A DNA stretch of 64,000 nt, taken from positions 1-64,000 of IMG/VR virus record IMGVR_UViG_3300005613_000020; one strand, given 5' to 3'. Shown here piece after piece: positions 1 to 34,887 of this stretch. A program made the translations under genes and the position numbers. Numbering within the stretch: position 1 is the stretch's first letter; each line of letters starts with the position of its first letter. The notes beneath the pieces were generated by a model. That model was not told where the DNA came from. It searched no databases and saw nothing but the letters and a program-made list of their open reading frames with translations. This DNA is from a virus.

Positions 1-437
1 CAAACTACTTCTATTACTCCTGCATTGATTATGTATCCCGCGCATGTTTTGCACGGAATCGGGCAAGAGCAATACAAGGTAGACCCCTCTACTGATACTC
101 CAGCTCTAGATGCTGTAACAATAACATTAACTTCTGCATGGGAAGCAACGCAATATTCCAAACCTTCACCAGACTCAAAAGGAACTGCTTTTCTAGGACA
201 AGTTCCACTAGGCACAGCATATCCCTGATAGACAGTTTCTGTACCATTCCTAGAAACTAGTACGCTAATACTAGGCATTCTAACCCAACACTCAGAGATA
301 CCACTAGGCGGACCATTATAACCTGTCGATATTATTCTATTATTCTTTACTAGTACCGCTCCAATCTTCCTAGACGCACACTTTGAGTTTGACGATACAG
401 CATCTGCAATATCCATAAAATAACTATCCCAAGTCAC
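1..437 (-). CDS. dCMP deaminase (runs off the left edge; not in the ORF track)
   Basis: Manual translation from GTG at 437: [46 protein letters not shown]...SHAEVNVI...[17 protein letters not shown]; HAE and PCxxC zinc motifs. Confidence 0.9.
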   Translation of the reverse strand, partial: [145 protein letters not shown]

Positions 438-577
438 TACACTACCTTCCCATCATTAGACCCTTTTATTACCTTCTTCAATGCTTCCATGAAATCAGTT
501 CTTGCCACGTCTAACTTCTTCACTTTATTTTTCCTCTCTAATTATATAATGTGCTACTTTTTCAAAAAATGTGACGC

Positions 578-973
578 CTACCAAAGAGGAAACTCGTCTT
601 CAAATACATTTCTAGCCTCTTCGCACGCAATCTCGTGCTGTCTCAAACAATCGTTGCAGTATGGTCCATCCCTACAAATGGAGCAGAAACAATCCTGCAT
701 AGCTTCTACTGACTGACTACATCCTACGCACGTTGAAATGCTTCCCTTCTTGTCATCCTTAAAATGTACTGGTATTCCGTAAAGAGTAATCTCATCCACA
801 ATATTTGCCACTAGCTTAGACACTATATATCCAGTAGACTCTAGTTCATTCTTCTTGTGTACAATGTCTGAAAAATCGAACTCCAACTTAACTGCTTGCT
901 CACCAGGATACATTTTGATACCAACGCTAGTTTCAATTACTACTGTTCCTTTTGGATAATCTTCGTTAGGCAT
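578..973 (-). CDS. hypothetical protein with C-terminal Cys-rich (Zn-binding) region
   Basis: ORF with GGAGG RBS; CxxC...CxCxxC...CxxC. Confidence 0.6.
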   Translation of the reverse strand: MPNEDYPKGTVVIETSVGIKMYPGEQAVKLEFDFSDIVHKKNELESTGYIVSKLVANIVDEITLYGIPVHFKDDKKGSISTCVGCSQSVEAMQDCFCSICRDGPYCNDCLRQHEIACEEARNVFEDEFPLW

Positions 974-1233
974 TGAAAAAAACCTCCATATCTACTATTA
1001 ACGCAAATTCTTCGGTGTTCTAGCTACATGTGCAGACACAAAACCTAACTTGAGGGACACCATAGGACCCATTCGTCGTACTGTCAATCCAAGCTCAAAT
1101 ATTGGAAAGTGCCAATCTACCATTCCCATAACCTGCTTTCCTACCTCTACTCCATAATAACCAAGCTGACCAAAATTACCGTGTCCTGTACTTACGTTCA
1201 TCTTTATTTCCTCCTTCTATATTCATTAATACC

Positions 1234-1881
1234 CTACCGTAATAGTCTCTCATTTGATGCGGATGTGATATCACTATTCAACTCAAAACAAACACAATTC
1301 CTATTTGTGTTTCGACATGCAATTCCAGTTGATCCACTACCTCCAAACAAATCTACAACAAAATCATATTCCTCAGTGAACCCCTGTACAAGCATTTCGA
1401 TTAGAGCAACTGGTTTTTGAGCACCATGAATTTTATTCCCATCGTGTTTGAAATTAAGTACACTTGGTAAGTGAGTAAAGTCTCCGTGCTTTTTGAAGTC
1501 TCGAAAACCCTGGTTTGCATAGAATATAAGTTCATGCCTCTTTCTTACAGGTTTGCCCATTCCTATCTTGTTCTTGTCCCATACCAGCAATCCTGTATTT
1601 TGCCAGTCGTAAAAAGCTGAGAATAGTATAGGATAGAACTTATCATCACAAAAGAAAAACACTGGTGCGTCTTCCTTCAATGTCCGCTCAAGCTTCTTCT
1701 TCATCTCCGTAAAATAGAATTCTTGAATGGAGATATCTGCAAGATTCTTGAACTTCTTTCTGCCGAATGCTGTAACAACAGGAGTGGAGTATGGAGGATC
1801 TGTGATAAGAAGATCTATACTTTGATCGTCAATCATCTCTAGCCCTTCCATACAGTCACAGTTAACTATTTCTACCATCAT
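1234..1881 (-). CDS. DNA amino-methyltransferase (beta class, N6A/N4C), orphan
   Basis: DLLITDPPY catalytic motif, HGAQKP, DLFGGSGSTG SAM-binding motif. Confidence 0.92.
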   Translation of the reverse strand: MMVEIVNCDCMEGLEMIDDQSIDLLITDPPYSTPVVTAFGRKKFKNLADISIQEFYFTEMKKKLERTLKEDAPVFFFCDDKFYPILFSAFYDWQNTGLLVWDKNKIGMGKPVRKRHELIFYANQGFRDFKKHGDFTHLPSVLNFKHDGNKIHGAQKPVALIEMLVQGFTEEYDFVVDLFGGSGSTGIACRNTNRNCVCFELNSDITSASNERLLR

Positions 1882-2358
1882 TCTAATCCTATTCGTTATT
1901 TATCCCCCTGTACCATAACCTATCAATACACCTAACCCAATAGCCAAAGGAGTACAAATAACTCCTGCTACTATACCATAAAATAGATCATACATTATCT
2001 TTTTCCTCTCTGAAACACCTCTTACACAAATCGCTATCATCCTGTAGTTTAACTCCAAATTCGTCTTCTGGAACCCTCCACCCATGCTTACATCTAGTCT
2101 TTCCCATTATAGGTCTATGTTTGCTGTTACGAATTATTGTGCTTACTCTATGAACCTTTCCAGTACTTAGCCTTACGCAATCCATCAATATTCTCCTCTT
2201 AACGATCTAGGACATACTCAAAGTCTATCTCTTCTTTGTATCGTTCAACAAAACAATATCTATCAAACCTATCTGAATAGAAGAGACTATCATCATCAAA
2301 GTACTCTATGGTAATTATGTCTCCATATTCGTTTCCGCAGAAGTTATCACTTATTATC

Positions 2359-3288
2359 CTAATCTTGATTGTCATGGCAATTAAGCCTATCCTGTAAACG
2401 GCGTTTAAACATCAAGGCTGTTTCCTTGCTAATTACCTTCTGAACTTGTTTATTCCAAGCTATCTCTCCTTCTGCTTCTCTGCGAATATCTTCTACCATT
2501 TCAGAAATTACCTCGCCTGTATCTTCAATGTTAACATCCTCGTCGAAATTCTGGAGAACATGGGTAAGTCTCATTTCCGTTACCCACTCCTCACAAACCA
2601 TCTTTGCATCCTTGATTACTTCAAGTTCATCCGCACTAACAACCTTTCGTGGAGTCTTGGTTTCTTTGAATTCCTCTCCCTTGTGCTTGCAGATTACCCT
2701 CTTTCCATTATTCTTTGTCATTTCCTCAATTGGCCTTAGAACTACGCCCTCTCTCTTGTGACCAGGACCCATCCCGTTCTTTATGGCCTGAACTGATTCC
2801 CTATCCCTTTCGGCATCAACCGCGCTAATGGTTGTTGGAATTTTCTTATAAGGTACAAAATCAAGACCAAGTTTCTTTGCTATTTCTTCTGCCTTTGGCA
2901 TACTAAGCCAACGATCACCAATCTTTACATCAAATACCACAAACCTAAGTTCATTCCCGTAGGTTTCTTTCATCCCTTGCATCTTTCCGCCGTATGCTTC
3001 TCCATATACAATAACAGTTGTACATCCCATACTACAGAAATTCCTTGCAAGAACTTCTTCATCAAATATCTTTACAAAATCCTCGTGCTTTGCCCCTCCA
3101 GAGAAAAACACTAAATCATAATTGCTGTAAATACCCTGATCAGACAATTGTCCAGAAAACTTAACATGTGCCGACGTTCCATGAATCTTCTCCGACGCAT
3201 AGCATTCCTTGAACATCAGAACATCTTGATTCTTGTAAAGGTTATCTATATGAAGGTAGCCTATTGTTCTATCTCCTCTTCTACGCAT
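2359..3288 (-). CDS. RNA ligase, Rnl2-like
   Basis: Motif I EKIHGT, then YGEAYG, FVVFDV, EGVVLRP, KHK nucleotidyltransferase motifs; the real start may be the ATA at 3264. Confidence 0.85.
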   Translation of the reverse strand: MRRRGDRTIGYLHIDNLYKNQDVLMFKECYASEKIHGTSAHVKFSGQLSDQGIYSNYDLVFFSGGAKHEDFVKIFDEEVLARNFCSMGCTTVIVYGEAYGGKMQGMKETYGNELRFVVFDVKIGDRWLSMPKAEEIAKKLGLDFVPYKKIPTTISAVDAERDRESVQAIKNGMGPGHKREGVVLRPIEEMTKNNGKRVICKHKGEEFKETKTPRKVVSADELEVIKDAKMVCEEWVTEMRLTHVLQNFDEDVNIEDTGEVISEMVEDIRREAEGEIAWNKQVQKVISKETALMFKRRLQDRLNCHDNQD

Positions 3289-3584
3289 TCATCAGGAAAT
3301 ACTAAGATTCGTTCCAACTTATCTAGTTTCTCTGTAATATGTGTGTTGATCAATTCTTCAATATTTGGAAATATATAACTCAGCTGATCAATCATGATAA
3401 TCGTGTTGGCAATCTCTTCCGCCAAGGAATTCAAAGATCCACACCGACCTCTTCGAAAGTGGTTTGCTTCCGCACTCAGTTCAGAGCTTTCCTCTGCTAG
3501 CATTGCTACTTGCTCCTGAACTCCCCACTTATTTACAGCAAGCTTGTAAATCTCTTGCTTCTTTTCTTCCGTCCAATTTTCCAT
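3261..3584 (-). CDS. MazG-like all-alpha NTP pyrophosphohydrolase
   Basis: AEESSEL...LAEEIAN motif pair (the usual ExxD appears as ExxN). Confidence 0.7.
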   Translation of the reverse strand: MENWTEEKKQEIYKLAVNKWGVQEQVAMLAEESSELSAEANHFRRGRCGSLNSLAEEIANTIIMIDQLSYIFPNIEELINTHITEKLDKLERILVFPDECVEEEIEQ

Positions 3585-3586
3585 AT

Positions 3587-3952
3587 TTACTTACTACCGT
3601 AGGCTTTCCTTAAGTCAGTTTTTACTTGCTTATATCCATCTGGAGGAATTTTCCATTCGGGATACCATTCAGTCCAATTACAAGTACCTAGCCTTATCTC
3701 AACCAACCCTAGTCTATTCGCTGCTCTGATTTGCCACTTTGCCTTTTGCCAGCAATTAGGAACCCAACCTTTTATTGCGTAGTGATTCTCTTGCTTCTTT
3801 GCACACTCATCACAGTAATAGTCAGGTAACTTTGGGTCAAGGTCGTAGGGACCGCCGAAGTCTATTGAATAATCCGAATCCCATTTACAGAACTTACCAC
3901 ATATGCAGCAATGATTTCTGTATGACAATTTGTTTTTAGCTCTTTCTATCAT
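3587..3952 (-). CDS. hypothetical Zn-finger protein
   Basis: CxxC...CxxC; operonic spacing. Confidence 0.55.
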   Translation of the reverse strand: MIERAKNKLSYRNHCCICGKFCKWDSDYSIDFGGPYDLDPKLPDYYCDECAKKQENHYAIKGWVPNCWQKAKWQIRAANRLGLVEIRLGTCNWTEWYPEWKIPPDGYKQVKTDLRKAYGSK

Positions 3953-3963
3953 TACTCCATTAC

Positions 3964-4431
3964 TTAATTCGTTATATAGATTTCTTCCCTGTATACAAAG
4001 AATAGACCTATTGGATTTACACTATCATCTTCAATAATTGTAAGTTCGCCACATAATAGATATTCTTGTAACAAGTTAACAAGTTCATCATCACTGCAAC
4101 CTAGACCAAAAGGTACCTTAAGAAGTCCGGGGGATTTTCTAAGCTCCAGTTTATCAAATCTCTTTAATCCTAGTTCCCTAAGAATGGATTTAGCTTCTGC
4201 ACTAATAAGTTCCTTTGGATTCTCGGACGTTCTTAGTGTTATTATTGGAAATAAGAATGATTTTCCAAGATATTGTTTACCGTGTTCAAATTTTGTGTTG
4301 GTACCAATAAGCATAATCCTCGTAGAAGTTATACCAGAAAGAAATCTTAGTGCTGGTACCCATTCTTCTGGTACTATATGTCTTTCAACCTGTTTATCTC
4401 CCAGAAATACTAGACAACATCTACTATCCAT
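3964..4431 (-). CDS. hypothetical protein
   Basis: ORF with AGAGGAG RBS. Confidence 0.55.
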   Translation of the reverse strand: MDSRCCLVFLGDKQVERHIVPEEWVPALRFLSGITSTRIMLIGTNTKFEHGKQYLGKSFLFPIITLRTSENPKELISAEAKSILRELGLKRFDKLELRKSPGLLKVPFGLGCSDDELVNLLQEYLLCGELTIIEDDSVNPIGLFFVYREEIYITN

Positions 4432-4483
4432 TATTTTCTCCTCTTTCTCTCTACTTCTTTACGACACTGTTCTAGATACCGCT

Positions 4484-4543
4484 TGCTAACGTTAAAGTCA
4501 CCCGCTTGGTTCCTCTAAGTCGGTGTCCACTGCTTTGTTGGTC
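4484..4543 (-). other. attC site 3 (60 bp, degenerate)
   Basis: Minus strand GACCAAC-AAAGC-AGTGGACA-CCGACTTAGAGGAACCAAGCGG-GTGACT-TTAAC-GTTAGCA. Confidence 0.7.
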
Positions 4544-4734
4544 CGCCTAATCAGATCGTATCCTACCTTAGCTAGAGCCGCCCTTAAATCCTTGGCCCCG
4601 ATAATAAACCACCCGCCACTCCCACAATCCTCATCGCCGACCATCAATTCATCCAGCCATCCATCAATAGAGTCTAGGATAATTTGGTTATCATTTTCTT
4701 TGCACCTATAGCGTATACGCGTTTCTACTACCAT
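4498..4734 (-). CDS. cassette-borne hypothetical protein
   Basis: ATG at 4734 behind GGAGGG; the TTG start at 4764 in the ORF track is the attC R' core; stop codon lies inside attC. Confidence 0.7.
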   Translation of the reverse strand: MVVETRIRYRCKENDNQIILDSIDGWLDELMVGDEDCGSGGWFIIGAKDLRAALAKVGYDLIRRTNKAVDTDLEEPSG

Positions 4735-4758
4735 TGTTCCCTCCTTACCCGATGGTCG

Positions 4759-4813
4759 GCCCAACGTCTGAGCTAACCCGCGTTCCTACGTCGGGTTGAG
4801 CGATTTGTTATGC
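4759..4813 (-). other. attC site 2 (55 bp)
   Basis: Minus strand GCATAAC-AAATC-GCTCAACC-CGACGTAGGAACGCG-GGTTAGC-TCAGAC-GTTGGGC; L''/L' pair with one extrahelical base. Confidence 0.9.
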
Positions 4814-6209
4814 GGCGTAGTTGTTTAGGATGATACCGCCAATACCAAACACTATACCCATGCTTGTCTCCGATGATTGGCATTGCTTCAACTAACAGAT
4901 TCCCTATTCGCTCACTGACGCGTTCACAACGGCGGAACCCATTAGTGCGAAACATATTCCCCTCGTTATCTATCACAAGGTACCGATCAGCTAGCATTCC
5001 TCTAAAGAACCCAATACAGAAGTGATCCATTGGGTCACCATCCCCAATCATTTTTAATATAGTTTCACCGATTGATTTTGCCAAAAACGGTGGAACCGCA
5101 TTGCCTACTTGTTCATATTGTTGTGTGGTACTTCCATAGAAAATATATGAATCTGGGAACGATTGTATTCTTGCAGCTTCCCTAACAGATATAACCCTAT
5201 CCTGCACCGGATGGAAGAAGCTTCCCCAATGCGGGTCGCATTTAGTTAACACCGTTGAACATAATCCTTCAGGGTGAAGTCTTCCATATCGTTTAGTGTG
5301 ATCGCTTCGACGCGCACGCTTTAATCCCGCTGGCAATAAATCAAATGGAATATCTCTCCAGCTACCGCCTTGCGGTATATGTTTAAGCCGTTCTAAATTA
5401 ATCTTGCCAAGCTTTGAGCAAATATGGTTTTCAATGCGCCTAGAGCCTATGCGGAGAATTTGTTGATATTCGCTTTTTGGTTCTGTTGGATAATCAAATA
5501 TACCGTTAGTGTCTCCCGGCTCTATTTCTGGCAAATCGGATATTGCATCCCATACACTTGTGTGGGCTTTTAAGTGCTGTGCAAACAACGGCGGGATACT
5601 AATGCAAAGTTCTTTTGCGCCAGTGAAATTGGCAACTGCTGTTGCGTTATAAGTAGGCTCAGGAAAAATTATCTTTTTTCCTCGACCTTTAATTGCAATA
5701 AAGGTAGTTCTGAATCTCATTTGCGGCACTCCGTAATGGCCTGCAAATAATATTCTATGGGCTACGCTATAGCCCATCCTGTCAAGCTCTTTATAAATCT
5801 GCTCGACAACTGTTCCTTTTCCTAAAGATACAATGCCGGGTACATTTTCAATCAATACAGCTTTGGGTTTGAGTGTTTCTGCGATACGTAAATAATCTTT
5901 AAATAGATGATTTCTTTTATCATCAAGGCTTCGGATTGGCGCATTTATAGAGAAGCCTTGGCAAGGTGGCCCGCCTGCAAGCAAATCTAACTCGCCAACT
6001 TTCAACCCAAGGCTTTTCTTCAAGCTTCTATCGCAGACCTCTCGGACATCATCGACTACAACCTCTGTGTTTGAATGGTTTCGCTTGTAGGTATCTGCAT
6101 AATTTGGGTCAATTTCATTTGCCAATATTGGTGAAAAGCCAGCCATTTCCAAGCCACATGAAAGGCCTCCAGCACCTGCAAACAAATCAACTAAAAGTTT
6201 CTTTTTCAA
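4773..6209 (-). CDS. DNA (cytosine-5) methyltransferase with ~85-aa unrelated C-terminal extension; cassette-borne
   Basis: Motifs I DLFAGAGG, IV GGPPCQGFS, VI ENVPG, VIII GVPQMRFR, IX SVREAARIQSFPD, X QVGNAVPP. Confidence 0.95.
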   Translation of the reverse strand: MKKKLLVDLFAGAGGLSCGLEMAGFSPILANEIDPNYADTYKRNHSNTEVVVDDVREVCDRSLKKSLGLKVGELDLLAGGPPCQGFSINAPIRSLDDKRNHLFKDYLRIAETLKPKAVLIENVPGIVSLGKGTVVEQIYKELDRMGYSVAHRILFAGHYGVPQMRFRTTFIAIKGRGKKIIFPEPTYNATAVANFTGAKELCISIPPLFAQHLKAHTSVWDAISDLPEIEPGDTNGIFDYPTEPKSEYQQILRIGSRRIENHICSKLGKINLERLKHIPQGGSWRDIPFDLLPAGLKRARRSDHTKRYGRLHPEGLCSTVLTKCDPHWGSFFHPVQDRVISVREAARIQSFPDSYIFYGSTTQQYEQVGNAVPPFLAKSIGETILKMIGDGDPMDHFCIGFFRGMLADRYLVIDNEGNMFRTNGFRRCERVSERIGNLLVEAMPIIGDKHGYSVWYWRYHPKQLRRITNRSTRRRNAG

Positions 6210-6251
6210 ATTTCTCTTTCCTATCTACACACGTAGGATGGTTTTTATTGT

Positions 6252-6299
6252 GCATAACGTTGAGTTCAGCGGCTTGTCCGCTGAAACGGTTGGTTATAT
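6252..6299 (-). other. attC site 1 (48 bp)
   Basis: Minus strand ATATAAC-CAACC-GTTTCAGC-GGACAAGCC-GCTGAAC-TCAAC-GTTATGC; canonical R''-5-L''(8)-loop-L'(7)-5-R' layout. Confidence 0.9.
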
Positions 6300-7072
6300 T
6301 GCGTATCTTCAATTCTCTGCTTTGCGATTTCAAAGTATTCTTTATCAATCTCAATACCGATGAAATCGCGGTTTAACTGTTTCGCCATTTTGCCGGTTGT
6401 TCCACTGCCCATGAAAGGGTCAAAAACGGTATCGCCTTCATTACTCCACGATATTATGTGATCATGTGCAAGTTTTTCGGGGAATATCGCAGGATGTTGA
6501 TATGCTATTTTGTCTTTTGTAACATGACCACCACCAACTGTGTATTTCCAAACATTCCCTATAACTTTGTCACTTGATTTTGAAGGCTTCCCTTTGTTGT
6601 GGAAGTTATTATCTTTTTCTCTTTGATAATTTTTAAATTTCCTATTATCTTTCCATACTTTTTTTTCTTTTATTGGGTTAAATACTCGAGGACCGGTCTT
6701 TTTTGTAAATATAAACATATATTCAAAATACTGTTCATACCTATTGTGTGATAGTGGTGGGCCTGTTTTGCTATATATCATCGTATCATGCAAGTTAAAT
6801 CCAATTTCCTTAAAATATAATGCTTGTTTAAAGCTTGACCCCGTCTCACTACCTTTAACCGTAGCATCACCAACAACCCAAACAACGACACCGCCGGGTT
6901 TTGTAACTCTCCATAAACCGGCAGCAATAGCGGAAAATTCTGCCCAACCCCAGGTTGATGAATTATTATAAGTCCTCAGATTGTCGTATGGTGGGCTTGT
7001 GACCGTCAAATCAATCGAATCAGGCTCACATGTAAATAAATACTCTCTGCAATCCCCGTGTATCAGTTTCAT
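6266..7072 (-). CDS. DNA amino-methyltransferase (beta class, SPPY; N4C/N6A); cassette-borne
   Basis: [22 protein letters not shown]. Confidence 0.93.
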
Positions 7073-7096
7073 TTTACCTCGTATTTTCGTTTAGCA

Positions 7097-7115
7097 ATAT
7101 AACAAGTGATTAGCT
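7097..7115 (-). other. attI-like primary insertion site (or decayed attC)
   Basis: AGCTAAT-CACTT-G|TTATAT; the GTTATAT core matches R'' ATATAAC of the first cassette. Confidence 0.6.
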
Positions 7116-7337
7116 TGACTCTCCATATATAGACATCGCCTTATTGAAGCCCTGGACCGCACTCCTATCATGGAATCTTTGTGTACCAGGTAGTACCAAC
7201 TCCACGGTAGTAAAGGCGCTTCTCTTGCTTTCATCGTATCTATATCTCACGGCGTATAAGCTATTGCCGTATTGCCTTGTGAGTTTCTTAGTCCCTGGAT
7301 CGCCTGGGCCCATTCTTTTAATTACTGTTCCCTGCAT
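7110..7337 (-). CDS. conserved hypothetical protein (PGxxGTK...YG...VRYRYD...TVEL type)
   Basis: Recognisable motif string; function unknown. Confidence 0.65.
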   Translation of the reverse strand: MQGTVIKRMGPGDPGTKKLTRQYGNSLYAVRYRYDESKRSAFTTVELVLPGTQRFHDRSAVQGFNKAMSIYGESS

Positions 7338-7481
7338 TAGCCGTCTCCCTTAACAATCCCTCTTAACAATATGAAAGAAAAAAGAAAAAAAGAAAGAAAT
7401 AACTAGTATGCTCTCCACCCATCCGCTAGACCAGAAATGTTTTCAACATCCCTTGTCCTCCCCTCTTCCCTCCATACTCTT

Positions 7482-7510
7482 ATTATACCGGATTTTACAA
7501 AAAAGTGTAA
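7482..7510 (-). promoter_or_regulatory. sigma70-like promoter, class with TTTTGTAAAA spacer; candidate Pc for the cassette array
   Basis: TTACAC-17 bp-TATAAT; the same spacer motif occurs at 34859 and 45179. Confidence 0.65.
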
Positions 7511-7544
7511 CATTAGCTTCAAATTTAAGTCGTCTACGATATAG

Positions 7545-9992
7545 TTAATCAACAAGAGTTCTCCCAAGAATTCCTTTGTCAACATCCCATTCAACTTCAG
7601 TAGCAGGAAGTTCAACTCCTGTTCTTACACCAGTTAGTCTAATAAGACGACGTTTTTCTTCAATGGTTGCATTCTCAGTTTTTGATATTATCAGGCATTG
7701 ATCTACAGCTTGAGCAAAGGCAAAAGAGTATCCAACCTCGTCAATAGAAGGAGTTTCCTTTTCTGTAGATCCTCTACCAAGTTGGTTGGAAGCAAGAACA
7801 ACAATGTTTCTAGATGTAGCAAGTGACTTCAATCCATATGTGACATTCATAACCTTCTCCCATGTATTGATATTCTTCTTGCTATCCTTGATAAGATATA
7901 TTCCGTCTACTACTACAATATCAGGTTGAAACTTCGCTGTTATATCTTCAATGCTTCCTAGAGTAAGCGCCTTCTTATAAGCATCTCCTACAACGGACAT
8001 CCAATCAGATCTATCAGATATTTGCTCCAACCAATCCTTATACTCCGTTGGATTTGAGAGTGTTCCTCTAACCAATCCCATATTAGAAAACTCATAACCT
8101 GTGATCTTTCCCATGATTGTATCCCAACGTGCCTCTAGTTCAACGATAGATAGCTCTGGTGAGAAAAATAGAACCCTTTTGCCTAGGGAGTATGCAATGC
8201 ATGATAGGTATAGAGCAAGCCAGCTGTTATGTACTACTAATCCATTAGCTATAAAATTATGGTTTCCCTCTATTTCTAGATCATACGTATTATCATAGTT
8301 GCAATTCTTGCGTATAGTGGAAACCTTATCAAACCATAGTTCTGATGTAGATAAGTTTTGCAAAACAGTAGAATCATATTTCTTAGCAAATGAGGATAAA
8401 GTTTTTCTTGGGCAAGCTCTTTTACCGTCTTGCTTATAAACATCCTTTCTTGGTATCCTAGAAGCTTTCCAAAAATAATCTGGTCTTTCATCCCTTATTA
8501 TTTTTCTTATCTCCATTGGAAATGTAGAATCTCTTCGTCTTCTCCCGCAATAGCTGCTGTAGAATTCTTCAAACTGAGCCAGCTTGTCTCCTATTAAGTG
8601 TCTACCTACAGTGTTTCTAAACTTTTCTATAATTGTTGGATCATTTAGTTTTACTCTAATCGTATGTTTATTAGGATATATTTTAGACGGAATACCTAGC
8701 CTGTGAAGCATAAAAGAAACTTGAGATAACAGTTTTTCAGAGCAACTATCGTAAGCAATGTAGGTTTTAACTTCCCCGTCTCCACACCACATAGCTCCCA
8801 ATAAAATAGCTATTTGATTCGTATCTAGTTCATACACAAAATTCTCCAATGTCTTATCTATTGATTTATGCCCCCATAACCCTACCTTTTCTAAAAGTTC
8901 TCTTAAGCCGTTATGCCTTTCTCCACCACCTCTAATTTCGAAACTTCTACCTTCTTGTTTAATTGATGAAAACCAAGCCTTTGGATATAAGAAATTTATG
9001 AGACTTCTGAACCTTCGGTTAATCTCCAAATCATATGCTGTAAAAGAGGGCAACAAACAACATCCGTCAGAAATCATATATCCCAGTATTTCTAATTCTT
9101 CGTTTGATAGAAAGCATGATGTTTCTGATTCTAGAAGGCAGCTTGGTCTTATGATTGATTCCCCCTCTTCCAAATCTTCAACTTTGATCCAGCCCCTAAG
9201 AGTAAATACAGGATGATTTTTTGTTAGTTTAATAGATAATCCACTATCAAAGGATACTTCATAGATTTCCTTTTTCCCGTTATCTATAACATCAATGACC
9301 TTGCACCAGGAAAACTTGTAGTTATTTTCATCTATGCTTTGAACTACATCTCCCAATACAACATCCTCTATATTTATATAACCGCGCTTAGTCCAAACTT
9401 TGGACCCTTTGCATAAGCATTTTCCACGTTTTGTAGAACCAATAACTCCCACTAAATTGCCTGGCAACCAGCTTACTCCAAGTTCGTCAAGAATTTCTAG
9501 GCCAGTAGGAATGCCAATTGGTTCACCATGCTTAATTGCTTCTACCTTTTCAATTAGCCTATCAATTCTCTCAATTGCATCTCTGTCTGTATAGCTTCTA
9601 CCGTAATCTGCATCTGGCCTAAGTTCGGATAGATTGCTTATCAGATACTCAAGTGAATCTAGTGGCTTCTCTTCTTCCATTAGTAGTTCGATTCCCCGCT
9701 CTAAAACAGATTGCATTGACCTAGATGTTTGAGCCTTAATCAGCTCAGATATATGCCATTCAAGCTCGTCTTCAATTACTGTGTCGGACTTGAAGCTATC
9801 AAACTTCTTCTCTAGAACTTGTATAGAAGGAACCTTTCCCTCATAGTTCCTAGAAAACTCCTCCACAAATTCATAGACTGGAAGCAGCTCTTGAAAGGAG
9901 TTAGGACTAATTCCCTTATCTCTGAGATCTACAAGCTTGTCAAAGGAAATTATTGATGAAATAACATATCTCTCTAAATCAATTTGATCCAT
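7545..9992 (-). CDS. DnaB-like replicative helicase containing an intein
   Basis: Walker A GSTKRGK/S split by the intein; Walker B IVVVDGIYL; SNQLGR; spliced product 417 aa. Confidence 0.9.
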   Translation of the reverse strand: MDQIDLERYVISSIISFDKLVDLRDKGISPNSFQELLPVYEFVEEFSRNYEGKVPSIQVLEKKFDSFKSDTVIEDELEWHISELIKAQTSRSMQSVLERGIELLMEEEKPLDSLEYLISNLSELRPDADYGRSYTDRDAIERIDRLIEKVEAIKHGEPIGIPTGLEILDELGVSWLPGNLVGVIGSTKRGKCLCKGSKVWTKRGYINIEDVVLGDVVQSIDENNYKFSWCKVIDVIDNGKKEIYEVSFDSGLSIKLTKNHPVFTLRGWIKVEDLEEGESIIRPSCLLESETSCFLSNEELEILGYMISDGCCLLPSFTAYDLEINRRFRSLINFLYPKAWFSSIKQEGRSFEIRGGGERHNGLRELLEKVGLWGHKSIDKTLENFVYELDTNQIAILLGAMWCGDGEVKTYIAYDSCSEKLLSQVSFMLHRLGIPSKIYPNKHTIRVKLNDPTIIEKFRNTVGRHLIGDKLAQFEEFYSSYCGRRRRDSTFPMEIRKIIRDERPDYFWKASRIPRKDVYKQDGKRACPRKTLSSFAKKYDSTVLQNLSTSELWFDKVSTIRKNCNYDNTYDLEIEGNHNFIANGLVVHNSWLALYLSCIAYSLGKRVLFFSPELSIVELEARWDTIMGKITGYEFSNMGLVRGTLSNPTEYKDWLEQISDRSDWMSVVGDAYKKALTLGSIEDITAKFQPDIVVVDGIYLIKDSKKNINTWEKVMNVTYGLKSLATSRNIVVLASNQLGRGSTEKETPSIDEVGYSFAFAQAVDQCLIISKTENATIEEKRRLIRLTGVRTGVELPATEVEWDVDKGILGRTLVD
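8226..9419 (-). mobile_element. 398-aa intein with LAGLIDADG homing endonuclease
   Basis: Starts CLCKGSKV, block B TKNHPV, LGYMISDG and LGAMWCGDG motifs, ends YDLEIEGNHNFIANGLVVHN/S. Confidence 0.95.
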
Positions 9993-10051
9993 TTAAAAGA
10001 CCCCCATTATTTGGCCTATTCTTTCCAACATGTGGGTTACCTTGGTTTTGG

Positions 10052-10581: not shown

Positions 10582-10655
10582 TGGTGGAATCAGGTAGATT
10601 CGAACTCCCATCGTCGGTATGCAACACCGAAGTTCTCCCATTGAACTACGACCCC
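10582..10655 (-). tRNA. tRNA-Ala(UGC)
   Basis: Cloverleaf GGGGTCG...TCGGT-GTTGCAT-ACCGA...TTCGAAT...TGATTCC-A-CCA; G3:U70 alanine identity pair. Confidence 0.85.
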
Positions 10656-13299: not shown

Positions 13300-14415
13300 T
13301 TACTTCGTCTCCTCCGACCAGATTACGCCAAAGACACTCCTCATATCCTTTCTTGGAAACCTTGACGATAAGGCTCTCATAACATTTCCCCTGTCAGTAA
13401 GGATACTCATTCCAAGTTGTCTGTATTCCTCCATGACTTTTTCCCTGAATTCATGCTTTTGGATGACTTCTTCCAGACATTTCGATATCCGGTAATGAAC
13501 CTTTTCAACTGATGTCTCTGAAAACTCTTCAAGAAGAAGAGCCCTGATATTGTCCGTCGTTGGAAGATCCCAATTTTCAAAAGCATTCTCACATGTGGCT
13601 ATTATGATGTTCTTTGAGATACCGCCTTGACTCCAATGGATCAGCTCAATTTGAGAGGGCTTGCATTTTAGCTGTTGCCAGTTTCCGTCATCGGTAAGCA
13701 TATACCAAACCTCTCCCTCACAGCCACAATAGTATCCGTCTCCAGTGTCCTCTATTGTTCTTTCCATCGTCTTCCTAGAGGCATTATAGGAATCCTCCAA
13801 TTTGACGTTCCCTAAAATACCTCCACGTAGCTTAGCAACAGAAAGATCAGTATGATCAAAAGGTAATGCCGATGGAGGAAGAATCTTACCATCTCGTCTA
13901 ACAAATAGTACTGACAAATCAAGAGACTTCTCGTACTTGATTAGATGAGGGTTCCTAGCTCCCCATAGCTCATACGATATGTCTGCTTCTAGAACCCTAG
14001 GCAAAGTTAGTATTTCTGGAATGTCCTCCATTATCTCCGCAAGCATCTCTCGGAACGGACCAAACTTAGAGTTTTGAACGGATGGGGTAAGTCTAGTCTT
14101 GAACGAAACAAAGATGTTACCCTTTGCGTCATGATACCGATAGCTGAAGATATTGGTTCCATCAAGCTTTTCGTACTGCTCTATGCTCACCGCTTTAGGA
14201 AAGCAGTAGTTACCGTTTTTGCCAAATGGGTACTTAATCTTAGGTGTACACCGGATCAGCTGAGGACACTCCGCATCATTTACTTTGGTGATCAATAAGG
14301 CTCCGTAGAGATCCGTACTAAGGTTTGATATGTACCCCTCAACAACATTGTCGTTGTAGGGATCTTCACATCGGAATTCCTTGTAGCAATTCTTGAATAT
14401 TTCCTCTGGATTCAT
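13300..14415 (-). CDS. second RNA-ligase-fold nucleotidyltransferase
   Basis: PKIKYP, motif I EKLDGTN, SYELWG, EGEVW, KCK. Confidence 0.7.
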   Translation of the reverse strand: MNPEEIFKNCYKEFRCEDPYNDNVVEGYISNLSTDLYGALLITKVNDAECPQLIRCTPKIKYPFGKNGNYCFPKAVSIEQYEKLDGTNIFSYRYHDAKGNIFVSFKTRLTPSVQNSKFGPFREMLAEIMEDIPEILTLPRVLEADISYELWGARNPHLIKYEKSLDLSVLFVRRDGKILPPSALPFDHTDLSVAKLRGGILGNVKLEDSYNASRKTMERTIEDTGDGYYCGCEGEVWYMLTDDGNWQQLKCKPSQIELIHWSQGGISKNIIIATCENAFENWDLPTTDNIRALLLEEFSETSVEKVHYRISKCLEEVIQKHEFREKVMEEYRQLGMSILTDRGNVMRALSSRFPRKDMRSVFGVIWSEETK

Positions 14416-14865: not shown

Positions 14866-15587
14866 GCAATATCCTTAGTTGAAATACCTATTACAAAGAT
14901 GGCAATTACAGGGAGACCTGTAAGTATCATTGTTTGCCTCTGCTTCTACCTCTTCGCCCTTAGTGGCTAATTCAACAGCACAGTTGAAGCAAATAACTTC
15001 ATTAGTAAGTTTTACACGGTAATAAACCTTTGCATCTACGCTCATAATTACTCCCTTATAACTAGCTAGCGGGTCTCGAATCCACAGTTGGCTTTTGACG
15101 GTTCCAGTCAGAGCTTTGTATTATAAATAATACGGCCGTCTAGGAATAGCCATGTCCTGAATTATAGTTTTGGTCCGGTTTGTCCTAATATGTGTTTGCT
15201 TTCTTATGGTTGCATACGTCCTTGCTTCAAGATCTGAATTGCAATTATAGCATTCGCGCATTACTGTACTCCTATTTTCTCTAACCTTCTCACACCAGTC
15301 CGCTAGATGGTTGTCTAGGAACTAGTGTTAGCCTGTTAGCTATTGTCTGATTATCGGAGTAGCGTTATTCCTTTCTCAGACTTAGATGCTGTGTTTATTT
15401 TTGTACCTAGGATATACCTCAGACTGAATTATATCTTCAATTTCCTTACATCGTTTTTCGCTTAATCCAGTAGCATATTGTATATCATACCAAGGTAGAT
15501 TTCCAGCTACATCTATTAGAGCTAATTCCAGGTGTTTAGTATATTCAGCAGTTTCCATAAGTTTTCCCCATCTTTTTCTATACTACT

Positions 15588-15880: not shown

Positions 15881-15955
15881 TGGTCAGCGGGCTAGGATTC
15901 GAACCTAGAATGGCGGGGCCACAACCCACCGTGTTGCCATTACACTACCGCGCTG
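15881..15955 (-). tRNA. tRNA-His(GUG), atypical acceptor stem
   Basis: GTGGG-TTGTGGC-CCCGC anticodon arm, CTAGG-TTCGAAT-CCTAG T arm, encoded CCA; one bulged C in the acceptor stem, A73. Confidence 0.75.
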
Positions 15956-15960
15956 ACAAA

Positions 15961-16039
15961 TGGTCGGAGTGGTAGGATTCGAACCTACGACCCCCTGGTC
16001 CCAGGCTAGGTGCTCTAAACCGGACTGAGCTACACTCCG
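15961..16039 (-). tRNA. tRNA-Pro(UGG)
   Basis: CGGAGTG...CACTCCG-A-CCA; anticodon loop CCTGGGA; bacterial-type C1:G72. Confidence 0.85.
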
Positions 16040-18166: not shown

Positions 18167-18449
18167 GGCTTTAAGCCTCCTTGTGTATTAGGATTATGCG
18201 TATTTCCAAGCTCGGAGTACTTGGAAAATCCGACTTCCTCTCGACAGATATGGAAAGGTTTAACGATACAATCACTGTCCCTCACCACTTCAGAACTGTT
18301 TAGATTGCATCCGTAGAGCAAGCCACTGAGGCGGCATAGCTTGGTACCTAATTTCTTTCCTATCGTTTCTAACATTTTTCCTCCGGTTAGTGTCTGGTAA
18401 CCTGTGGCTTTCTTTCAAAAGCCACGGGGCTTGCCCCGTGGTAGGTTAC
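18167..18449 (-). ncRNA. omegaRNA scaffold
   Basis: ~280 nt between the element end (GTAACCTACCACGGGG...) and the iscB start, the usual omegaRNA position. Confidence 0.8.
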
Positions 18450-34317: not shown

Positions 34318-34852
34318 CTATCCCTCCCTTTCTTCTGCTTCTAAGTCAATCTGAATAGCCTTGAGTACTTCTTCTGCCTTGATGACTAATTCCGTCTTTC
34401 CCCACCTATTTTCTTCCGCACTAGAAATTGCCTTTCTAGCAGTTACCAAAAGGTTCTCCCATCTTGTTTCGTCTAAAGGTATTCGCTCTAGGACATGGCT
34501 ATTACCCGTATATATAACTAGATAGATTTTACCCTGTGATTTGTTGTATTCGAATCTAATATTCTTTTGATATCCGTCATAACAAGCCATCTTCTTTCCT
34601 ATTATTAATCCCCTTTTGGATGTCTAACAGTGTTTGCTCTGCCTTAAGAACCGTCTCACATTTACCCCAATTGGCTTGACGTGCCTTAAACTGAGCTATT
34701 TGGTGGGTCTTCTGAGCTTCGTCCCAACTAGTCTCGTCTAAATCAATAGAGTCTATTACTGTGTTGTGGGCTACATCGTATACCATAAGGGTAATAACCC
34801 TAGATATTGGATTATAGGCATAAGCAATGCGCCGTTTTGGTTTTCCTGTCAT
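34318..34852 (-). CDS. tandem paralogous hypothetical proteins (34577-34852, 34318-34590)
   Basis: Shared LDETxW...WGKxExVxKAExxL motif. Confidence 0.7.
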
Positions 34853-34858
34853 ACTTAT

Positions 34859-34887
34859 ATTATACTCTGTTTTACAAAAAAATGCAC
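34859..34887 (-). promoter_or_regulatory. sigma70-like promoter (TTTTGTAAAA class), probably leaderless
   Basis: GTGCAT-17-TATAAT-6 nt-ATG. Confidence 0.6.

Follow-up and report, generated by a model that had tools for sequence, protein, structure and literature searches.

Insertion of integron cassettes at secondary sites is reportedly the subject of earlier work, and three described systems lend themselves to comparison with the locus analyzed here. The first is attI1, whose empty form reads CCCTAAA-ACAAA-G/TTAGAT in plasmid R100 (L001 about 14335-14355), the slash marking the crossover; the motifs GTTATGG and GTTACGC precede this simple site. Extra integrase-binding direct repeats upstream (DR1/DR2) are established for attI1 only, and the left half is the most important part of attI1. 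The second is the attG site: cassettes insert at genomic GWT sites and are expressed from nearby promoters, and a CRGM motif at +6 to +9 has been described for the hot spots only (Loot et al., bioRxiv 10.1101/2022.09.11.507474). The third, and the closest in setting, is the integrase-less cassette array (CALIN) of virulent phages, whose cassettes include methyltransferase genes; inverted GTTRRRY motifs have been noted at the borders of such arrays, and escape from host restriction is the proposed role (Qi et al. 2023, Front Microbiol, PMC9892861).

Here we analyze a three-cassette array in the first 64 kb (the window, meaning the whole stretch of 64,000 nucleotides under study) of a 96,884-bp IMG/VR virus record that carries direct terminal repeats and is rated complete. 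The junction at 7097-7115 is, in our judgment, probably the array-proximal junction of a CALIN that sits at a secondary, attG-type site, and not a dedicated attI. Like the phage CALINs of Qi et al. (2023), the array consists of co-oriented, attC-bounded cassettes in an integrase-less phage, with cargo that includes a methyltransferase of the N6_N4 type; its border motif partly resembles the inverted GTTRRRY motifs noted there. Unlike them, it belongs to an unrelated and new 97-kb phage (megablast of positions 3000-10000 against 50,697 phage records found no near relative), its attC sites are short (48-60 nt), and its left boundary is confirmed from metagenomic copies of one of its cassettes.

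The phage and the surroundings of the array

All genes around the array are on the minus strand and are taken here in their order of reading. A gene for a DnaB-type helicase (9992-7545), whose intein carries a LAGLIDADG homing-endonuclease domain and whose product shares no more than 28% identity with known phage helicases, is followed by a putative sigma-70-like promoter (7511-7482), readable as GTTACA-18-TATAAT or as TTACAC-17-TATAAT, a 10/12 match, which lies upstream of ORF75 and the cassettes. ORF75 (7110-7337) is an orphan backbone gene: it belongs to no Pfam or PHROG family, and among 5.8 billion proteins it finds no homologue but itself. The backbone resumes past the array with ORF155 (3964-4431), followed by a 121-aa ORF of no assigned function (3952-3587), an NTP pyrophosphohydrolase-like ORF and then an RNA ligase, all in the same direction. 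ORF155 has a single homologue, P0002, which is 74% identical and is encoded on a 6,519-bp ENA contig. No relatives of ORF155, ORF75 or the helicase C-terminus were found in viral_contigs, and a search with the ORF155 alignment in viral and metagenome contigs likewise found none.

Several other features of this part of the genome deserve mention. A further N6_N4-like methyltransferase gene (1234-1881, minus strand) has neither a cassette start nor an attC and is a resident gene, so that there are three methyltransferases in this phage region. A HEARO (IscB-associated omega) RNA at 18229-18449 scores above the Rfam gathering score, and three tRNA genes lie at 10585-10655, 15885-15954 and 15964-16039; these are also minus-strand features. 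Just 5' of the ORF75 start, a tandem direct repeat, two copies of ATTGTTAAG(A/G)G, occupies 7345-7370 on the minus strand; on its own 5' side is a purine-rich tract, which in turn is preceded by a long pyrimidine-rich tract (7476-7372). The leader as a whole (7330-7476) folds no better than its shuffles (z -1.2).

The promoter has a 76% paralogue at 34843-34884 (family D11), and because of this we regard it as part of the phage backbone. Between the promoter and ORF155, no terminator is predicted on the minus strand except a weak site inside the gene of cassette 1. The original prediction, in which inserted cassettes join an existing operon, is borne out to the extent that the cassettes follow ORF75 and a phage-type promoter in the same orientation and that no terminator is predicted to separate them. 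It is plausible from this arrangement that the cassettes are co-transcribed from the phage promoter.

Three cassettes and their attC sites

The array holds three minus-strand cassettes, each with its own ribosome-binding site and each ending in an attC. Cassette 1 (6258-7102, 845 bp) encodes an N6_N4 DNA methyltransferase (7072-6266; Pfam PF01555, E 2e-45), and cassette 2 (4765-6257, 1,493 bp) encodes a C-5 cytosine DNA methyltransferase (6209-4773; Pfam PF00145, E 2e-68). Cassette 3 (4490-4764, 275 bp) contains a 78-aa ORF (ATG at 4734 to a stop at 4498) for whose product no known family was found, although the exact protein is on record. The two orphan methyltransferases are likely to serve anti-restriction. 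In composition the cassettes stand apart from the backbone: cassette 3 has about 50% G+C against about 37% around it, and GC skew, which is about -0.3 in the backbone, weakens to values of about -0.05 to -0.15 over cassettes 1 and 2. Each cassette start also complements its own R'' region, as is expected of units that circularise: GTTATATTGC matches at 10 of 10 positions in cassette 1, GTTATGC at 7 of 7 in cassette 2, where the R'' reads GCATAAC, and GTTGGnCCG at 8 of 9 in cassette 3.

A second assembly of the same phage, from ENA, is split within the cassette 2 gene (4773-6209) into one contig of 11,058 bp and another of 32,656 bp. The array is also present in that assembly, since ORF75 and cassette 1 are on one of its contigs and cassette 3 and ORF155 on another. 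The break may reflect micro-heterogeneity or population variation in the array, or it may be only an assembly artefact.

The three attC sites, all on the minus strand, are attC1 (6252-6299, 48 nt), attC2 (4759-4813, 55 nt, with its crossover between G4765 and T4764) and attC3 (4484-4543, 60 nt, with its crossover between G4490 and T4489). By eye, the sites show an R'' box ending in AAC and an R' box that begins with GTT; a bulged stem lies between the two, set off by a spacer of 5 nt on the R'' side and of 5-6 nt on the R' side. When aligned on their own with MAFFT, the three sites gave an unusable alignment, and 19 metagenomic relatives were then added, for a total of 22 sites. In this alignment AAC and GTT are invariant in all 22 sites and four R-box pairs are kept, and the RNAalifold consensus has paired R''/R' boxes, unpaired 5-nt spacers and an L''/L' stem that is bulged at column 16, with compensatory changes in six stem pairs. 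Near-identical to attC2 is an attC type found 5' of a cassette-1-type gene in a metagenome contig (L082), and a relative of attC3 occurs in another (L089).

A covariance model, R1, was built from the 22-site alignment with no classical attC included. It scores attC1 at 53.1 bits, attC2 at 56.5 bits and attC3 at 38.8 bits (E 2e-6), and the DNA fold of attC1 has a z of -3.1 to -3.6. Across the whole phage, R1 finds these three sites only, all of which belong to its training set, and the next matches have E values of 0.4-0.6. In 50 kb of plasmid R100 its sole match is the aadA1 attC, recovered at full length with 52.7 bits (E 1e-9). The three downstream sites are true attC sites, because a model built without classical sites recovers a classical one, and their recombination by IntI is predicted. 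Such a model, made from phage and metagenome sites, is a useful by-product in its own right. Our own attC scanners were dropped: they gave about as many matches in shuffled genomes (5) as in the real one (9) and missed attC3, and R1 lends no support to a candidate that they had proposed at 15279-15341.

No integron integrase (TIGR02249), tyrosine recombinase (PF00589) or serine recombinase (PF00239) was found in the complete phage genome, in searches whose controls responded. Three attC sites within 1.8 kb and no integron integrase make this array a CALIN.

The edges of the array

At the present left junction (7097-7115, minus strand) the backbone letters AGCTAATCACTTG (7115-7103) give way to the TTATAT of cassette 1 (7102-7097), with the crossover between G7103 and T7102. 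At the other end, TTAGCA (4489-4484, minus strand) directly follows the G (4490) of the third attC; these six bases are both the last of attC3 and the right half of the rebuilt empty site. The full series of crossovers is 7103/7102, 6258/6257, 4765/4764 and 4490/4489. The original prediction had ended the left flank at 7103, begun TTAGCA at 4489 and laid the site over the stop codon of ORF75, and in each of these it was exact: the letters agree, and the TAA (7112-7110) lies within the left arm.

The left edge can be checked against copies of cassette 1 elsewhere. The closest genomic homologue of its methyltransferase, at 72% identity, is on a 2.5-kb contig of a Planctomycetota MAG (L002), which itself consists of successive attC-bearing methyltransferase cassettes, and the copy there likewise starts G/TTATATTGCTAAA. 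A pattern taken from this cassette start matches 12 metagenome contigs (L082-L093), and in 12 of 12 the similarity to the phage begins exactly at TTATATT, that is, it stops at G/TT. To the left of the cassette start, the 12 contigs and L002 are identical to the phage flank at 6-11 of 29 bases, which is the random level. The left neighbour of this type of cassette is another attC in seven cases; in four independent cases (L083, L084 together with L088, L091, and L092) it is not an attC, and the junction reads G/TT or A/TT. By these metagenomic cassette copies, the left boundary at 7103/7102 is independently confirmed. This set of contigs, in which a single methyltransferase cassette adjoins an attC seven times and other sequence in four independent cases, is another useful by-product. 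With this shared boundary and the interlocking cassette starts, insertion of the cassettes exactly at 7103/7102 and 4490/4489, as had been proposed, is well supported.

One way to reject that boundary would be to let the array start farther upstream, with ORF75 as a cassette and a decayed attC in 7097-7149, the very outcome that the original prediction had named as its refutation. ORF75 is indeed small, orphan and co-oriented, like many cassettes, and with its filters off R1 gives a trace of 6.1 bits at exactly 7097-7115 on the plus strand. The trace has an E value of 5.4 and comprises only the R box and a partial inverse of it; the 140 nt upstream of 7103 contain no AAC; neither strand of 7097-7149 forms a fold (z +0.35 and +0.78); and no G/TT start 5' of ORF75 complements any R''-like box. 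We consider this alternative close to refuted, and because there is no attC within 7097-7149, the array starts at 7103/7102.

The metagenomic copies of cassette 1 add several observations about the wider cassette pool. In L088 (27-32 and 895-904) and L084 (924-930), both junctions of a single cassette read A/TT and not G/TT, and L084, which retains the cassette ends but has lost most of the methyltransferase ORF, is a decaying cassette. In two unrelated metagenome contexts (L084:896-927 with L088:1-30, and L092:1553-1583) the methyltransferase cassette starts 1-2 nt past the -10 box of a strong sigma-70-like promoter, TTGACA-17-TATACT (11/12) in one form and TTAACA-17-TATACT (10/12) in the other; cassettes behind promoters may reflect selection for expression or a target preference for promoter DNA. 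An 11,699-bp contig, L085 (oriented 73-7144), carries at least 11 attC in a row (R1, 24-69 bits) and holds a cassette-1-type methyltransferase of about 81-87% amino-acid identity in tblastx. Some 4.5 kb past its array are without attC; L085 is the distal end of a large array and, in the manner of class 1 arrays, closes with G/TTAGAT.

Homologues of the cassette 1 methyltransferase at 50-68% identity are common in viral contigs. None of the 80 such contigs (L096-L175, 827 kb) gave a match to R1, and in 673 kb of genome contigs covering 80 loci with methyltransferase homologues the model found only L002, so that these loci supplied no additional phage array from which an empty site could be rebuilt. 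Among the loci sampled, then, the attC-bounded form is confined to the closest relatives of cassette 1, roughly those of 70% identity or more. The Planctomycetota MAG that contains L002 (G001) has fragmentary ORFs like integron integrases, the best of which, at 113 bits, is below the cut-off, and four further attC matches on contigs other than L002; these intI-like fragments and attC matches are distributed over contigs C280, C229, C248, C381, C435, C262 and C374. No intI stands beside any attC in this MAG and its intI fragments are degraded, so it offers no cognate attI for comparison.

The rebuilt empty site, attI and attG

When the flanks are joined (7103 to 4489), they form GCTAA-N7-TTAGC, and ORF155 comes to follow ORF75 after a normal 65-nt intergenic spacer that bears the ORF155 ribosome-binding site. 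We infer that the two genes were neighbours in this way in the ancestor. The 24-mer of the empty site has no match in viral_contigs; a 12-mer of the right flank matches once, by chance, among the fetched loci, which total 1.6 Mb.

If the array had instead arrived together with flanking DNA, by homologous or illegitimate recombination from a phage or bacterial array, the empty site would never have existed in this lineage. Phage genomes are mosaic and ORF75 is an orphan, and a right end in TTAG, as in true integrons (G/TTAGAT in R100), could then be half of a donor attI. A breakpoint that was not site-specific is unlikely to have fallen exactly on the G/TT boundary of the 12 contigs. The promoter 5' of ORF75 also belongs to a phage promoter family, GC skew in the ORF75 region is like that of the backbone, and the spacer that results from removing the cassettes is an ordinary one. 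We hold such an import to be distinctly improbable and return to insertion into the phage's own spacer.

In the 7-5-7 geometry proposed for the empty site, the joined flanks are complementary at 5 of 7 positions (GCTAA/TTAGC), versus 4 of 7 in the present junction. Of the genomic GTT sites scored in the 7-5-7 arrangement, 1.9% show a symmetry of 5/7 or better, as do 1.4% of random joins of G and TT; perfect inverted repeats of 5 bp or more, with a spacer of 3-9 nt, span the crossover at 4.3% of GTT sites; and with the left flank fixed, a random right flank would by arithmetic reach 5/7 about 5% of the time. The symmetry of the rebuilt site is real but statistically marginal. The original prediction had read the better symmetry of the empty site as support for insertion; because these chance levels are 1.4-5%, the step from 4/7 to 5/7 adds little, and the insertion model, which does stand, is carried by the true attC sites, the interlocking boundaries, the left edge shared with 12 contigs and the lack of an upstream attC.

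The proposal that the empty site resembles attI fares unevenly. Its sequence and register hold up: the rebuilt site and attI1 of R100 share the G/TT crossover, the R core GTTAG and an imperfect inverted L core, CTAA, 6 nt leftward, so that both read CTAA-N6-GTTAG, and in both a right half in TTAG persists at the far end of the array. Among the 3,241 GTT sites of the phage, CTAA in this register occurs at 0.37% and GTTAG at 5.1%, and the two together at none, though the register, like the TTAG right ends, was looked for after the sequence had been seen and is suggestive only. Other parts of an attI are missing. Unlike attI1, the phage site has no adjoining divergent intI, no DR1/DR2-type sites and no Pc-in-intI arrangement, and its place is the 3' end of a phage gene that reads in the same direction. 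The complete phage genome shows no cognate intI, the 60 nt preceding the left arm are free of GTT, and recognition by IntI is putative. The R box GTTAGCA agrees with GTTRRRY at five of the seven positions, and the L arm AGCTAAT has the 5/7 symmetry already described (p about 0.014-0.05). The attI resemblance is real but weak, and an attI-like empty site is not established.

The cassette family offers a further comparison. L088 is the only other array of this family for which both ends are available, and its rebuilt site, ..TATACTTA/TTAGGAA.., has a symmetry of 1/7; no match to an empty site of the L088 type was found in viral_contigs. The CTAA box is absent from four of the four non-attC left flanks. 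Of the array right ends in the cassette pool, 4 of 5 read TTAG, which suggests that the targets may be tighter, or more R-box-like, than the bare GWT reported for attG.

These data bear on the idea of a functional pseudo-attI, in which the L box AGCTAAT and the R box GTTAGCA, 5 nt apart, would bind two host IntI monomers and form a preferred, possibly reusable landing pad where cassettes are loaded singly. The match of both cores to attI1 of R100 in sequence and register, a combination seen at none of the present GTT sites, speaks for it, as do the left half that is intact after insertion and the remark of Qi et al. (2023, PMC9892861) that phage CALINs are bordered by inverted GTTRRRY motifs. 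It was, though, a hypothesis formed after the sequence had been seen, on a symmetry whose p is only 0.014-0.05. The cognate intI and the upstream GTT-type repeats are missing, the R box departs from GTTRRRY at two positions, four other non-attC left junctions do without CTAA, L088 rebuilds to a nearly asymmetric site, and the three cassettes could equally have come as one multi-cassette circle. On balance we think a functional pseudo-attI rather unlikely.

The reading that we favor, a CALIN at a secondary site, places the crossover at G/TT in an unfolded, non-attC intergenic spacer of a phage operon, which is the setting of an attG site. As at attG (Loot et al.), the GWT-type crossover is in double-stranded, non-hairpin DNA outside an integron platform, the insert has a nearby resident promoter from which its expression is predicted, and one cassette is found at many unrelated targets; the four unrelated non-attC junctions of the cassette family, G/TT or A/TT, are what promiscuous GWT targeting predicts. 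The locus differs from attG in that the target is a phage genome and not a chromosome, in its attI1-like L core, for which no requirement has been reported at attG sites, and in its partial match to CRGM: the rebuilt site has AAGC at +6 to +9, agreeing at 3 of 4 positions. Because CRGM was described for hot spots only, this mismatch is not disqualifying, but it does count against the secondary-site reading. So do a site whose CTAA-N6-GTTAG makes it more attI-like than a random GWT, right ends that suggest a preference tighter than GWT, and an empty state that is reconstructed and seen in no relative.

The steps of such an insertion can be sketched. During infection of an integron-bearing cell, a host IntI, which is probably the catalyst, would have taken the bottom strand of an attC in its folded form and recombined it with a double-stranded GTT. 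This GTT would have lain in the 65 nt that separate ORF75 from ORF155, and the exchange would have fallen between G7103 and the TT. The incoming DNA could have been a single three-cassette circle or three single cassettes in turn. The target would simply happen to carry an R-box-like GTTAG and, 6 nt leftward, a CTAA, which together make a 5-bp inverted repeat. The outcome would be two orphan DNA methyltransferases and a 78-aa ORF placed in an early operon that is read from about 7482-7511.

A bolder version of the pseudo-attI idea is that an early gene of the phage terminates in a minimal L-R site, maintained by selection, and that the phage, which has no integrase of its own, borrows the host IntI to load and exchange anti-restriction methyltransferase cassettes within an early operon. 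We regard this as quite improbable; if the site were a true attI mimic, a minimal docking site could open the integrases of the host to use by phages, which would be new. As far as the evidence goes, the locus is an ordinary insertion at a secondary site, and such insertions have been described before. As such it is a base-exact example of a virulent-type phage acquiring classical integron methyltransferase cassettes, and it bears on how phages gain anti-restriction genes and on the shuttling of cassettes between bacteria by phages.
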